NCBI RefSeq assembly: GCF_965641715.1
Contig: NZ_OZ282453.1
Reading direction: 5' to 3' (one strand)
DNA: 64,000 nucleotides
DNA from: Escherichia coli
GTDB lineage: Bacteria > Pseudomonadota > Gammaproteobacteria > Enterobacterales > Enterobacteriaceae
Shown: positions 61,924 through 64,000 of the stretch, one piece after another
How the letters are laid out: every line of letters starts with the position of its first letter
Position numbering within the stretch: the stretch's first letter is position 1
Made by a program: the position numbers and the translations under genes
Notes under the pieces: model-generated
Told to the model about the DNA's origin: nothing
Seen by the model: the letters and a program-made list of their open reading frames with translations, nothing else
The model's database searches: none

Positions 61924-63297
61924 ATGATGGAAGGTCAACAGCACGGCGAGCAGCTAAAGCGCGGCCTTAAAAACCGCCATATTCAGCTTATCGCGCTGGG
62001 TGGCGCGATAGGGACAGGACTATTCCTGGGTAGCGCCTCCGTAATACAGTCCGCAGGGCCAGGAATTATCCTGGGTTACGCCATTGCTGGTTTTATCGCC
62101 TTTCTGATCATGCGTCAGCTGGGTGAAATGGTGGTCGAAGAACCTGTCGCAGGCTCCTTTAGCCACTTTGCTTATAAATACTGGGGCAGCTTTGCTGGCT
62201 TCGCTTCTGGCTGGAACTACTGGGTACTGTACGTTTTAGTTGCCATGGCAGAGCTGACTGCTGTGGGTAAATACATTCAGTTCTGGTATCCGGAAATCCC
62301 AACCTGGGTTTCTGCCGCCGTGTTCTTTGTGGTGATTAACGCCATCAACCTGACCAACGTAAAAGTGTTTGGTGAGATGGAGTTCTGGTTTGCCATTATC
62401 AAAGTTATTGCGGTAGTAGCGATGATCATCTTCGGCGGCTGGCTGCTATTCAGTGGCAACGGCGGCCCGCAGGCGACCGTTAGCAACCTGTGGGATCAGG
62501 GTGGTTTCCTGCCGCACGGCTTCACCGGGCTGGTGATGATGATGGCGATTATCATGTTCTCGTTCGGTGGTCTGGAACTGGTGGGGATCACCGCAGCAGA
62601 AGCTGATAACCCGGAGCAAAGTATCCCGAAAGCAACTAACCAGGTTATCTACCGCATCCTGATTTTCTATATTGGTTCGTTAGCCGTTCTGCTCTCGCTG
62701 ATGCCGTGGACCCGCGTTACTGCTGATACCAGTCCGTTTGTACTGATCTTCCACGAATTGGGCGATACCTTTGTGGCAAATGCGCTGAACATCGTGGTAC
62801 TGACGGCTGCGCTCTCCGTGTACAACAGCTGTGTATATTGCAACAGCCGTATGCTGTTTGGTCTGGCACAACAGGGCAACGCGCCAAAAGCGCTGGCGTC
62901 TGTCGATAAACGCGGCGTACCGGTTAACACTATTCTGGTGTCTGCGCTGGTTACGGCATTGTGCGTCCTGATTAACTACCTTGCCCCAGAGTCCGCTTTC
63001 GGACTGTTAATGGCGCTGGTGGTATCCGCACTGGTCATCAACTGGGCGATGATCAGTCTGGCGCATATGAAATTCCGTCGTGCCAAACAAGAACAAGGCG
63101 TGGTAACTCGCTTCCCTGCTCTGCTTTATCCGCTGGGTAACTGGATCTGCCTGCTGTTTATGGCGGCGGTACTGGTGATTATGCTGATGACCCCAGGAAT
63201 GGCGATTTCGGTATACCTGATCCCGGTATGGCTGGTGGTGTTAGGCATCGGCTATCTGTTTAAAGAGAAAACCGCCAAAGCCGTAAAAGCGCATTAA
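61924..63297 (+). CDS. aroP: Aromatic amino acid:H+ symporter AroP (APC family)
   Basis: 457 aa; MMEGQQHGEQLKRGLKNRHIQLIALGGAIGTGLFLGSA. Confidence 0.95.
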   Translation: MMEGQQHGEQLKRGLKNRHIQLIALGGAIGTGLFLGSASVIQSAGPGIILGYAIAGFIAFLIMRQLGEMVVEEPVAGSFSHFAYKYWGSFAGFASGWNYWVLYVLVAMAELTAVGKYIQFWYPEIPTWVSAAVFFVVINAINLTNVKVFGEMEFWFAIIKVIAVVAMIIFGGWLLFSGNGGPQATVSNLWDQGGFLPHGFTGLVMMMAIIMFSFGGLELVGITAAEADNPEQSIPKATNQVIYRILIFYIGSLAVLLSLMPWTRVTADTSPFVLIFHELGDTFVANALNIVVLTAALSVYNSCVYCNSRMLFGLAQQGNAPKALASVDKRGVPVNTILVSALVTALCVLINYLAPESAFGLLMALVVSALVINWAMISLAHMKFRRAKQEQGVVTRFPALLYPLGNWICLLFMAAVLVIMLMTPGMAISVYLIPVWLVVLGIGYLFKEKTAKAVKAH

Positions 63298-63306
63298 TCT
63301 CTCTAC

Positions 63307-63331
63307 GCCCTCACCCGTGCAGGGTGAGGGT
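63307..63331 (+). terminator. Hairpin 3' of aroP (gccctcaccc-gtgca-gggtgagggt)
   Basis: 10-bp inverted repeat 10 nt past the aroP stop; weak T-run. Confidence 0.55.
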
Positions 63332-63455
63332 TGTTACCTGCCTCACACTTTTCCGTGCAAAGCGATTTTATCCATATCAGCGGCGTTATCCTGCAACGCA
63401 ATTTATCCATAGCGAGCGAATAATTATCCTCATCACTTGATGGGGAGTCTTCTCT

Positions 63456-64000
63456 ATGAATAGCAGTAAATTATCAGTAAGAGAAAAGATCGGCTACGGG
63501 ATGGGCGACGCAGGATGCAACATCATCTTTGGCGCTATCATGCTGTTTGTTAACTATTTTTATACGGATATTTTTGGTCTGACCCCGGCTCTCGTTGGCG
63601 TATTACTGCTCTCTGTACGGGTTATCGATGCCGTCACTGACCCGATTATGGGGGCCATTGCCGACCGCACCCAAAGCAAATATGGTCGTTTTCGCCCCTG
63701 GCTATTGTGGATTGCCTTCCCCTACGCGCTATTCAGCATCCTGATGTTTACCACGCCAGAATGGAGCTATAGCAGCAAGGTTATCTATGCCTTTGTTACC
63801 TATTTCCTGCTCTCCCTGACCTATACCGCCATTAACATTCCTTACTGCTCGTTAGGTGGCGTGATTACTAATGACCCACAAGAGCGCGTGGCCTGCCAGT
63901 CGTACCGTTTTGTGATGGTGGGCATCGCTACCCTTCTGCTCTCGCTGACGCTATTGCCGATGGTGGATCTATTTGGCGGCGGCGACAAAGCGAAAGGGTA
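63456..64000 (+). CDS. GPH-family (glycoside-pentoside-hexuronide):cation symporter, YicJ/MelB-like; 5' partial, runs off window
   Basis: manual translation from ATG 63456 (GGGGAG SD 8 nt upstream): MNSSKLSVREKIGYGMGDAGCNIIFGAIMLFVNYFYTDIFGLTPALVGVLLLSVRVIDAVTDPIMGAIADRTQSKYGRFRPW...; open to the window end; not in the ORF track because no stop is reached. Confidence 0.8.
   Translation, partial: MNSSKLSVREKIGYGMGDAGCNIIFGAIMLFVNYFYTDIFGLTPALVGVLLLSVRVIDAVTDPIMGAIADRTQSKYGRFRPWLLWIAFPYALFSILMFTTPEWSYSSKVIYAFVTYFLLSLTYTAINIPYCSLGGVITNDPQERVACQSYRFVMVGIATLLLSLTLLPMVDLFGGGDKAKG

Follow-up and report, generated by a model that had tools for sequence, protein, structure and literature searches.

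In Escherichia coli K-12, the gene pairs YagG-YagH and YicJ-YicI share a two-gene logic in which a GPH symporter is encoded beside a cytoplasmic glycoside hydrolase. The locus described here follows the same logic with other partners, as YagH is a longer GH43 beta-xylosidase, YicI is a GH31 alpha-xylosidase, and the regulators differ too. The closest counterpart is found in Salmonella, where STM14_0178-STM14_0177 (STM0149-STM0148) are the same gene pair in the same position adjoining aroP (STM14_0180), and many S. enterica genomes encode this locus. Both Salmonella genes are arabinose-induced, and STM14_0177 has been named araU, with reference to a study of the AraC regulon. Deletion of STM0148 removed an advantage in the mouse gut that depended on dietary arabinose, and the gene mattered only when arabinose polymers were present in the diet; the arabinose trait has also been credited with the expansion of Salmonella to 'superspreader' levels. 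On the enzyme side, GH43_26 includes the structures 3AKF-3AKI (Streptomyces avermitilis SaAraf43A) and the 9NX entries (Acetivibrio AtAbf43C, 9NXG-9NXJ), and its previously characterised members, all ten of them, exo-hydrolyse alpha-1,5-linked arabino-oligosaccharides (PMC12493170).

The window, that is, the whole 64,000-nt stretch of E. coli DNA analysed here, ends inside the first gene of what is probably (about 0.8) a two-gene arabinose-controlled operon, activated by AraC and CRP, for the import of arabino-oligosaccharides and the release of L-arabinose in the cytoplasm. As part of the same explanation, and with the same confidence, the operon would be ancestral to the Enterobacteriaceae at the aroP-ampE site and would have been lost by K-12 along with about 99% of E. 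coli. The features at the window edge are as follows.

61924..63297, plus strand: aroP (aromatic amino acid permease), an open reading frame of 457 aa, so annotated in matching E. coli records
63308..63330, plus strand: aroP terminator hairpin (inverted repeat I4), a perfect 9-bp G+C-rich stem CCCTCACCC/GGGTGAGGG, 100% complementary
63332..63347, plus strand: CRP-like site TGTTACCTGCCTCACA (consensus TGTGA-N6-TCACA)
63360..63376, plus strand: araI1-like AraC half-site AAGCGATTTTATCCATA, 14/17 identical to K-12 araI1 TAGCATTTTTATCCATA
63378..63397, plus strand: putative araI2-like, promoter-proximal AraC half-site region, CAGCGGCGTTATCCTGC and then conserved CTGCAACGCA, in an uncertain register
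63419..63424, plus strand: probable -10 hexamer AATAAT
63443..63448, plus strand: Shine-Dalgarno sequence GGGGAG, 7 nt upstream of the ATG at 63456, its GGAG conserved across genera
63456..64000, plus strand: 5' part (codons 1-181 of 468) of a GPH-family cation symporter gene, assigned by translation and profile matches, which runs off the window end

The conserved upstream neighbour of the symporter gene is aroP. Its stop codon lies at 63297, and the spacer to the symporter ATG (63298-63455) is exactly 158 bp long. The 50-nt stretch with the aroP hairpin has a folding energy of -21.2 kcal/mol (z = -3.7), a stability that none of 200 shuffled sequences reached. Homology between the window and the K-12-type sequence stops at 63330, directly past the hairpin (query base 33); hence the hairpin is the last common sequence, and the left edge of the indel is at 63330/63331. 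In K-12, the ampE stop codon stands 10 nt past the hairpin, and in MG1655 the aroP and ampE stops are only 42 bp apart with no symporter gene between them. The first-pass annotation was thus right that non-K-12 content starts directly after aroP and that convergent ampE follows within a few tens of bp in K-12. The 158-bp spacer with its hairpin, the good Shine-Dalgarno sequence and the three protein motifs that it described are all present in the sequence. As to the two observations it had named as counter-evidence, carriers do not show ampE directly behind a truncated reading frame, and K-12 does not have the same gene at this position.

The 10-nt filler between the K-12 hairpin and the ampE stop, CAATAATCTT, has no match on either strand of the operon at up to two substitutions. 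Its resemblance to CCAATAATC, from around the -10 in other genera, is too short to carry weight. Scanning of 63150-63600 against Rfam at E<=1 returned no RNA family, so the spacer is not a known riboswitch or sRNA. The 3' part of aroP itself (about 62600-63100) is a divergent mosaic allele, its windowed identity being 92-96% to K-12 and loci L003 and L004, and 98.6% to a subset of E. coli. For the region at the window edge, no complete E. coli genome gave a match of 99% or higher.

The symporter frame is open through 181 codons up to the window end and contains GYGMGDAG, YFYTDIFG and DRTQSKYGRFRPW. This fragment matches Pfam MFS_2 with E=8e-49 and NCBIfam TIGR00792 (GPH) with 206.2 bits (E=7e-61); that the latter score is under the cut-off of 231.35 is due solely to truncation. 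With the same cut-off, the full-length E. coli orthologue reaches 424.8 bits, which places it in the family, and it matches the MelB structures with E=1e-47 over alignable residues 6-446. Orthologues are 468 aa long and run end to end on the 437-position GPH model, of which the window copy is visible to residue 181. The proposal of a GPH sugar:cation symporter is therefore confirmed. Its description as YicJ/MelB-like holds at the level of the family and fails at the level of orthology: the scores are below the NCBIfam cut-offs for PRK11462 (YicJ-type, 494 versus 836 bits), YagG (481 versus 610), GusB (291 versus 528) and MelB (250 versus 456). Although the YagG and YicJ-type models are the nearest ones, profile scores indicate that the protein represents a distinct GPH subfamily and is an orthologue of none of YicJ, YagG, MelB and GusB. 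By sequence comparison it is the orthologue of Salmonella STM14_0178, which may go by the name 'araT'.

The cation-site residues Arg52, Asp55, Asp59 and Thr121 of MelB are retained as R55, D58, D62 and T124, all within the 181 residues of the window. Meanwhile, the galactoside-binding residues Lys18, Asp19, Asp124 and Trp128 are replaced by Cys21, Asn22, Asn127 and Cys131, which indicates that the symporter substrate differs from that of MelB. The eight aligned residues at these cation-site and sugar-site positions are the same in 81 of 82 loci. MelB Asn58 corresponds to Thr61, and the coupling ion, proton or sodium, is uncertain.

Beyond the window, the gene order could be read from carriers of the operon. 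All eight of the E. coli carrier loci fetched have aroP, the GPH gene (468 aa; 472 aa in one), a GH43 gene (316 aa) and convergent ampE in this order, and two other Escherichia species (L004, and L005, which starts inside aroP) show the same arrangement. A glycosidase next to the transporter, followed by ampE, had been expected from the sequence alone, and GH43 followed by convergent ampE is what every gene-carrying E. coli genome shows. The second gene would accordingly be expected past position 64000 in the window's own genome.

The GH43 hydrolase, examined as its orthologue from E. coli AR_0085, matches PF04616 with E=1.3e-79 over residues 5-306 of 316, as a five-bladed propeller enzyme should. 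Its top six PDB matches are 5M8B, 5M8E, 3K1U, 9NXJ, 9NXG and 3AKF (E=1e-104 to 1e-127), with 60% identity to 5M8B along the entire propeller domain. We take 5M8B, 5M8E and 3K1U to be GH43_26 enzymes as well. In the PDB, the depositors of 5M8B and 3K1U call them 'beta-xylosidase'. The catalytic triad D14/D133/E194 (Asp base, Asp pKa modulator and Glu acid) is retained in 81 of 82 loci, and both this Asp/Asp/Glu triad and the propeller are common to 5M8B, 5M8E, SaAraf43A and AtAbf43C. Like 5M8B and 5M8E, the enterobacterial protein is single-domain, whereas the secreted SaAraf43A and AtAbf43C carry a CBM42 module; the enterobacterial enzyme has neither CBM42 nor a signal peptide. Indeed, a catalytic Asp at residue 14 leaves no room for a signal peptide, and the pairing with a GPH symporter also leads one to expect that the enzyme acts inside the cell. 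The downstream gene is thus predicted to encode a cytoplasmic GH43 subfamily-26 exo-alpha-1,5-L-arabinofuranosidase, the orthologue of Salmonella araU/STM0148. A cytoplasmic location argues for an imported oligosaccharide as its substrate and against a polysaccharide. In the picture drawn by the Salmonella authors, arabinose is freed from polysaccharide; such release could not be carried out directly by an enzyme with the predicted cytoplasmic location.

There is no regulator gene within the two-gene unit, and the operon is most likely controlled through predicted AraC and CRP sites in the 158-bp spacer. The CRP-like site is one of only two TGTNA-N6-TCACA loci in the 64-kb window, where 0.36 would be expected, and its TGTTA and TCACA halves are at least 95% conserved among 77 distinct upstream sequences. 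The distance from its half-site to the -10 hexamer is 77 nt, compared with 76 nt in K-12 PBAD. The araI1-like box is the sole exact match to AGC-N6-ATCCATA within the window. It begins 59 nt ahead of the -10 hexamer (58 nt in PBAD), and its TCCAT is at least 95% conserved across genera; the predicted site AAGCGATTTTATCCATA thus has the form of a 17-bp AraC half-site (TAGC-N7-TCCATA) upstream of the -35 region. The araI2-like region contains the direct repeat D3 (AGCGATTTTATCC / AGCGGCGTTATCC) with conserved ATCCTGCAACGCA, and this ATCCTGCAACGCA block occupies the place of I2 and the -35 in PBAD. The offset from the I1-like box to the I2-like repeat CAGCGGCGTTATCCTGC is 18 bp, the canonical one being 21 bp, and in the 21-bp register just 5 of 17 positions match araI2. 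As for the probable -10 hexamer, ATAA is at least 95% conserved in the 77 sequences, and it is collinear with the PBAD -10 TACTGT; transcription would start near 63432.

The CRP-like site, the araI1-like box, the I2-like box and the -10 hexamer are all conserved in the 77 distinct upstream sequences, and the CRP/AraC-like blocks of the Salmonella locus are conserved with the E. coli spacer. When the spacer was aligned collinearly with K-12 PBAD, a score of 77 was obtained, compared with 46 +/- 5.7 for shuffled sequences. The likeness to PBAD extends to the order and spacing of the elements, to a CCTG..ACGC block ahead of a weak -35 and, in most genera, to a similar TCTCCATAC stretch near the start site. 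The two promoters differ in the 18-bp placement of the I2-like repeat and in that neither a divergent araC nor an O2 looping site is nearby here. A consensus promoter scan gave no sigma-70 promoter and no consensus -35, and the absence of the latter is as expected because the promoter would be activator-dependent. The same scan proposed a 'terminator-like' hairpin at 63427-63446, which was rejected as it overlaps the likely start site and the Shine-Dalgarno sequence and has no clear T-run after it. The E. coli spacer also carries an additional, lineage-specific copy of TTTATCCATA at 63402-63411.

A working model can be proposed from these elements. When L-arabinose is present and glucose is absent, AraC and cAMP-CRP would bind the PBAD-like sites of the spacer in E. 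coli and turn the operon on. The symporter would then take up short arabinose-containing oligosaccharides or arabinosides, which may come from plant arabinan broken down by other gut microbes. In the cytoplasm, the hydrolase would cut off terminal alpha-1,5-linked L-arabinofuranose, and the free L-arabinose would feed AraBAD and may cause further induction through AraC.

The first-pass annotation regarded the locus as the edge of an accessory sugar-utilisation islet, and sugar utilisation in a minority of strains is indeed what is seen: the operon occupies the aroP-ampE site in just 53 of 5,426 complete E. coli genomes (~1%). Such rarity would suit a horizontally acquired island with K-12 as the original empty site, as would the signs that the segment moves between lineages. 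Carriers differ from one another by 2-6 nt in the 2.5-kb unit, against 11-26 nt in aroP and 25-30 nt in ampE, and the operon of Escherichia sp. E1V33 is nearly identical (9 nt) despite flanks that are 3-6% divergent. However, the aroP-GPH-GH43-ampE order is present at this exact site in 73 of the 76 loci outside the Escherichia/K-12 comparison set, which cover about 30 Enterobacteriaceae genera including Salmonella, Citrobacter, Klebsiella and Enterobacter, and therefore K-12 represents a deletion and not an empty site. Across genera the identities of the operon proteins run parallel to those of the flanking core genes, and in E. whittamii operon and flanks diverge alike (about 88-92%). The operon G+C of 51-53% equals that of the flanks, and a search for marks of a mobile island found no integrase, IS, tRNA or flanking direct repeat, the longest sequence common to both junctions being 7 nt; with two genes, neither for mobility, the segment does not have the make-up of a mobile genomic island. 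Moreover, a single identical K-12-type deletion junction is common to 5,370 of the 5,426 genomes. We thus consider the island explanation unlikely, and 'accessory' status holds in the sense of the E. coli pan-genome alone. In Salmonella the locus is widespread, including in S. enterica subsp. arizonae and diarizonae, where the amino acid identity to the E. coli operon is 91% for the symporter and 86-87% for GH43; in E. coli it is rare, at 1% of complete genomes.

The ancestral arabinose operon must also be set against two readings that we find very improbable, to about the same degree. In one, the pair would serve the use of xylosides, xylo-oligosaccharides or other beta-glycosides, as in YagG-YagH and XynT-XynB, and have nothing to do with arabinose. 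The best NCBIfam subfamily matches of the symporter (PRK11462 and YagG), the deposited names of 5M8B and 3K1U and the many beta-xylosidases within GH43 lean this way, but the subfamily scores are under both curated cut-offs and the closest structures are of GH43_26, a subfamily in which every characterised member is an alpha-1,5-arabinofuranosidase (PMC12493170). The PBAD-like promoter, the arabinose induction of the Salmonella orthologues and their relevance only with dietary arabinose polymers also speak against it, as does Gallibacterium, in which the pair is embedded in an ara cluster and adjoins araC, araA, araD and araB, each scoring above its NCBIfam cut-off. The other reading holds that the window's genome carries a decaying remnant, truncated or frameshifted past 64000 or deprived of the hydrolase. 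The window does end at codon 181, its allele is 99.1-99.4% identical at the nucleotide level to the annotated gene of the 53 carriers with no exact match, internal stops occur in 3 of 82 loci (all in other species), and some Salmonella lineages carry STM0148 as a pseudogene. Against decay, all 181 codons are open and only 3 nt differences separate the window from the intact alleles of carriers L001, L003 and L004, one non-synonymous (T43/A43, conservative) and two synonymous. Promoter and Shine-Dalgarno sequence are undamaged, every conserved residue is in place, and the operon genes bear no pseudogene flag in any of the eight fetched E. coli carrier loci.

Within E. coli, the divergence of the ancestral operon is about 0.1-0.2%, while that of its flanks is 1-3.5%. 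Low divergence in the operon beside higher divergence in the flanks points to recent spread by homologous recombination, and the movement of the segment is best read as allele exchange at the ancestral locus and not as insertion of a foreign island. It is possible, though we regard it as doubtful, that the intact operon is a single young allele passing among unrelated E. coli backgrounds, selected for access to arabinan oligosaccharides in the gut and shared with the divergent Escherichia sp. E1V33 through recombination tracts of ~3 kb. In that case Salmonella would face natural competition for an arabinan-derived nutrient from the ~1% of E. coli with the operon, and the species-wide deletion would be no neutral loss but a niche switch that can be reversed.

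The operon is real, was correctly spotted and is already known, and its biology is ordinary; it amounts to a presence/absence polymorphism at a well-studied K-12 landmark, with nothing new in kind. What the analysis does is join three known facts, namely the reach of the AraC regulon beyond the K-12 gene set, the need of Salmonella for an arabinofuranosidase on dietary arabinose polymers, and the lack of the operon in K-12 and ~99% of E. coli. Under the ancestral-operon reading, K-12 would lack, by deletion, an arabinoside pathway ancestral to the enterobacteria. The natural E. coli carriers, AR_0085, KV7 and NCTC10444 among them, offer material for testing the symporter substrate and the location of the enzyme.

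The surroundings of the pair vary in some genera. In nine of the 73 loci with the ancestral order, aroP and the symporter are separated by extra genes. In Kluyvera-type loci, a 3.9-kb segment from aroP to the symporter contains a LacI-family regulator, a SIS-domain protein and a beta-glucoside-type PTS gene; it was rejected as a clue to function, being an unrelated insertion. In Buttiauxella, a second GPH gene and an AbnA-like GH43 gene accompany the pair.

The end of the window holds aroP, a spacer and the first 181 codons of a symporter gene, with the following features.

61924-63297, + strand: aroP, open reading frame
63298-63455, + strand: 158-bp spacer between aroP and the symporter gene
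63308-63330, start of the spacer: G+C-rich inverted repeat with a perfect 9-bp stem, CCCTCACCC/GGGTGAGGG
63332-63347: CRP-like site, TGTTACCTGCCTCACA, one of only two matching loci in the window
63360-63376: araI1-like box, AAGCGATTTTATCCATA, 14/17 identical to araI1 and the sole exact AGC-N6-ATCCATA match in 64 kb
In the spacer, I2-like: second repeat, CAGCGGCGTTATCCTGC, then conserved CTGCAACGCA
63419-63424: AATAAT, spacer element
63443-63448, + strand: GGGGAG, 5' of the symporter ATG at 63456
63456-64000, + strand: symporter gene, 181 open codons up to the window end

The predicted folding energy of the 50 nt around the aroP hairpin is -21.2 kcal/mol (z = -3.7 relative to shuffled sequences). 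The symporter fragment contains the motifs GYGMGDAG, YFYTDIFG and DRTQSKYGRFRPW, and matches MFS_2 (Pfam, E=8e-49) and the GPH model TIGR00792 (NCBIfam, E=7e-61). Every detail that the first-pass annotation gave of the spacer, start site and motifs was found at 63298-64000, and the short aroP-ampE spacing it ascribed to K-12 was confirmed by the 42 bp between the two stop codons in MG1655.

When window positions 63298-64000 were searched by megablast against 5,426 complete E. coli genomes, 53 were found to carry the symporter gene (99.1-99.4% identity), and the remaining E. coli matches ended at 63330, the hairpin end. In all eight E. coli carriers examined for gene order, aroP is followed by the GPH symporter gene (468 aa, but 472 aa in one), a GH43 hydrolase gene (316 aa) whose start overlaps the symporter stop, a short hairpin, and then convergent ampE and ampD. 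A glycosidase or regulator followed by ampE had been expected downstream; as the eight carriers show GH43 and then ampE, this expectation was correct. The left junction of the indel lies directly 3' of the aroP hairpin and the right one within the stop codon of ampE, which reads TAG in the carriers and TAA in K-12, the operon of about 2.5 kb being replaced in K-12 by 10 unrelated nucleotides, CAATAATCTT.

To place this indel, one genome per species was scanned, giving 80 loci with the symporter at 85-100% identity. Two of them, from Escherichia sp. E1V33 and E. whittamii, were set apart, and in two of the other 78 the available sequence broke off within the locus, leaving 76 scored for synteny. 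The order aroP, symporter, GH43, ampE was found in 73 of these, from about 30 genera including Salmonella, Citrobacter, Klebsiella, Enterobacter, Kluyvera, Raoultella, Kosakonia and Buttiauxella; in nine of the 73 an unrelated gene block separates aroP from the symporter. The operon proteins lose identity at the same pace as the products of the flanking core genes, the G+C of the operon equals that of its flanks, mobility genes and flanking repeats were sought at the operon and none was found, and a single contiguous K-12-type junction is common to 5,370 of the 5,426 E. coli genomes. Therefore, K-12 has undergone one old deletion of an ancestral operon, and its junction is not an original vacant site into which an island was inserted elsewhere. 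The "accessory islet" proposed earlier thus holds as a rare allele probably passed between E. coli lineages but not as an inserted island, since the ancestral site is occupied in 73 of 76 loci. No source of the K-12 filler CAATAATCTT was found in the operon. The filler is similar to CCAATAATC, the -10 region conserved in other genera, which may be coincidental or may mean that the deletion took place in two steps and left a remnant.

Divergence within Escherichia was then counted against one carrier locus, L003.

Mismatches to carrier L003 (operon unit 2,544 bp, aroP 1,374 bp, ampE 855 bp)
Genome; operon; aroP; ampE
Seven other E. coli carriers; 2-6; 11-26; 25-30
Escherichia sp. E1V33; 9; 41; 53

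Among the carriers the operon is about 10 times less divergent than its flanks, and the E1V33 unit is almost identical to the carrier unit despite 3-6% flank divergence. The window represents a further background, its aroP 3' part being 92-96% and its operon part 99-100% identical to the carriers; in E. whittamii operon and flanks are equally divergent (about 88-92%). We read this pattern as one young operon allele that probably moves between lineages via homologous recombination across the conserved flanks. Meanwhile, the 3' part of the window's aroP (62600-63100) is a mosaic allele with 92-96% identity to K-12, operon carriers and E1V33. The 3' end of aroP (62900-63330) is 98.6% identical to an E. 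coli subset of which at least one member (FDAARGOS_1259) has no operon, and none of the 5,426 complete genomes combines the window's aroP allele with the operon.

When the protein was aligned to Salmonella MelB (4M64), the positions compared all fell within the 181 residues present in the window. The MelB cation site (Arg52, Asp55, Asp59, Thr121) is retained as R55, D58, D62 and T124, whereas Asn58 is replaced by Thr61 and the galactoside-binding Lys18, Asp19, Asp124 and Trp128 by Cys21, Asn22, Asn127 and Cys131. Eight checked residues, a set outside which C21 falls, are identical in 81 of 82 loci. The earlier label "YicJ/MelB-like" stands for the GPH family (TIGR00792, MFS_2) but not at a finer level, as the protein scores under the NCBIfam cut-offs of the YicJ-type, YagG, GusB and MelB models. 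It represents a distinct GPH subfamily, predicted to be cation-coupled and to carry a substrate other than melibiose. The hydrolase belongs to GH43 (Pfam, E=1e-79) and is 60% identical to 5M8B, followed by 5M8E, 3K1U, 9NXJ/9NXG and 3AKF. Its D14, D133 and E194, kept in 81 of 82 loci, correspond to the catalytic triad confirmed by mutagenesis in related GH43_26 enzymes (PMC12493170); exo-hydrolysis of alpha-1,5-linked arabino-oligosaccharides is reported for the ten members of this subfamily characterised earlier. Because the catalytic base is residue 14, the hydrolase has no signal peptide, and by this prediction it must act in the cytoplasm on the cargo of the symporter.

The spacer is collinear within 1 nt with K-12 PBAD, the araBAD promoter (alignment score 77; shuffles 46 +/- 5.7), but the I2-like repeat lies 18 bp from the I1-like box instead of 21 bp. 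Across 77 distinct upstream sequences the CRP-like, araI1-like, I2-like and AATAAT blocks are the conserved positions, and the intervening stretches vary. The Escherichia spacer also has an extra exact TTTATCCATA copy at 63402-63411, 35 bp past the araI1-like box, and TTATCCTCA at 63424-63432, another 21 bp downstream; in other genera the two are not conserved, and they could be added lineage-specific AraC half-sites over the -10 region, or chance. The sole other CRP-pattern match in the window is a perfect palindromic site, TGTGATGACGATCACA (41639-41654), directly upstream of gcd (ORF from 41698).

In Gallibacterium salpingitidis (Pasteurellaceae; L082 6001-13326) a symporter/GH43 pair with 87% and 81% amino acid identity to E. 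coli directly adjoins araC-araA-araD-araB, each gene scoring above its NCBIfam equivalog or subfamily cut-off. As these identities seem too high for the Pasteurellaceae-Enterobacteriaceae distance, transfer between families is suggested. Buttiauxella has two further genes after the pair, a second GPH gene and an AbnA-like GH43. In S. Typhimurium, aroP (STM14_0180) is adjoined by STM14_0177 and by STM14_0178 ("Na+/galactoside symporter"), both reportedly strongly induced by L-arabinose; STM14_0177 has been named araU, with Stringer et al. 2014 cited on the AraC regulon. Deleting STM0148 removes an advantage in mouse gut competition that needs dietary polymers containing arabinose and that free arabinose bypasses, and the same paper predicts a single arabinofuranosidase in S. 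Typhimurium. Two subspecies of S. enterica have a GH43 gene between aroP and ampE. The Salmonella locus-tag order presumably places STM0148 at this site as well. From this synteny, the presumed order and the single arabinofuranosidase, we equate STM0148 with the GH43 gene of the aroP-ampE site.

In the proposed mechanism, AraC with arabinose, presumably binding in E. coli too, and cAMP-CRP would turn on the spacer promoter, and the symporter would take up short arabino-oligosaccharides or arabinosides with a putative coupling ion. As the unit has no secreted arabinanase, the oligosaccharides would be made extracellularly by other organisms. The GH43_26 enzyme, probably also encoded in the window's genome, would release L-arabinose in the cytoplasm, which AraBAD would catabolise and which would sustain induction. 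The basis is gene families, conserved residues, synteny and promoter footprints, with induction and fitness role taken from the Salmonella literature. The feature first noticed is real and its interpretation correct overall. The operon has already been described, its RefSeq annotation is generic, and it is notable only as absent from K-12 and as a rare, recombining E. coli allele.

Several other loci deserve mention. In locus L072 of the scan, whose record bears the title Chryseobacterium sp. 18061, the entire enterobacterial gene order aroP...nadC is present, with proteins 81-91% identical; as this is implausible for Bacteroidota, the assembly is likely contaminated or mislabelled. A second rare indel of the window is an extra segment of about 650 bp between gcd and cueO (44260-44835, - strand), fully covered in 3 of the 5,426 complete E. 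coli genomes and skipped by the others. It encodes a 172-aa protein with a signal-peptide-like N-terminus (191-aa ORF from an upstream GTG), for which Pfam gave nothing significant (best match PsbP, E=0.015). Finally, between pdhR and aroP some E. coli encode a TssD (Hcp)-toxin fusion (L001 6291-10447; L085 1-1500; L092 585-4050). In L001 and L092, where the region beyond it is visible, repeated "bacteriocin immunity" genes form an array behind the fusion gene. Both of these loci also have the operon, whereas L085 has tssD but lacks the operon; the window's pdhR-aroP spacer is short and K-12-type.
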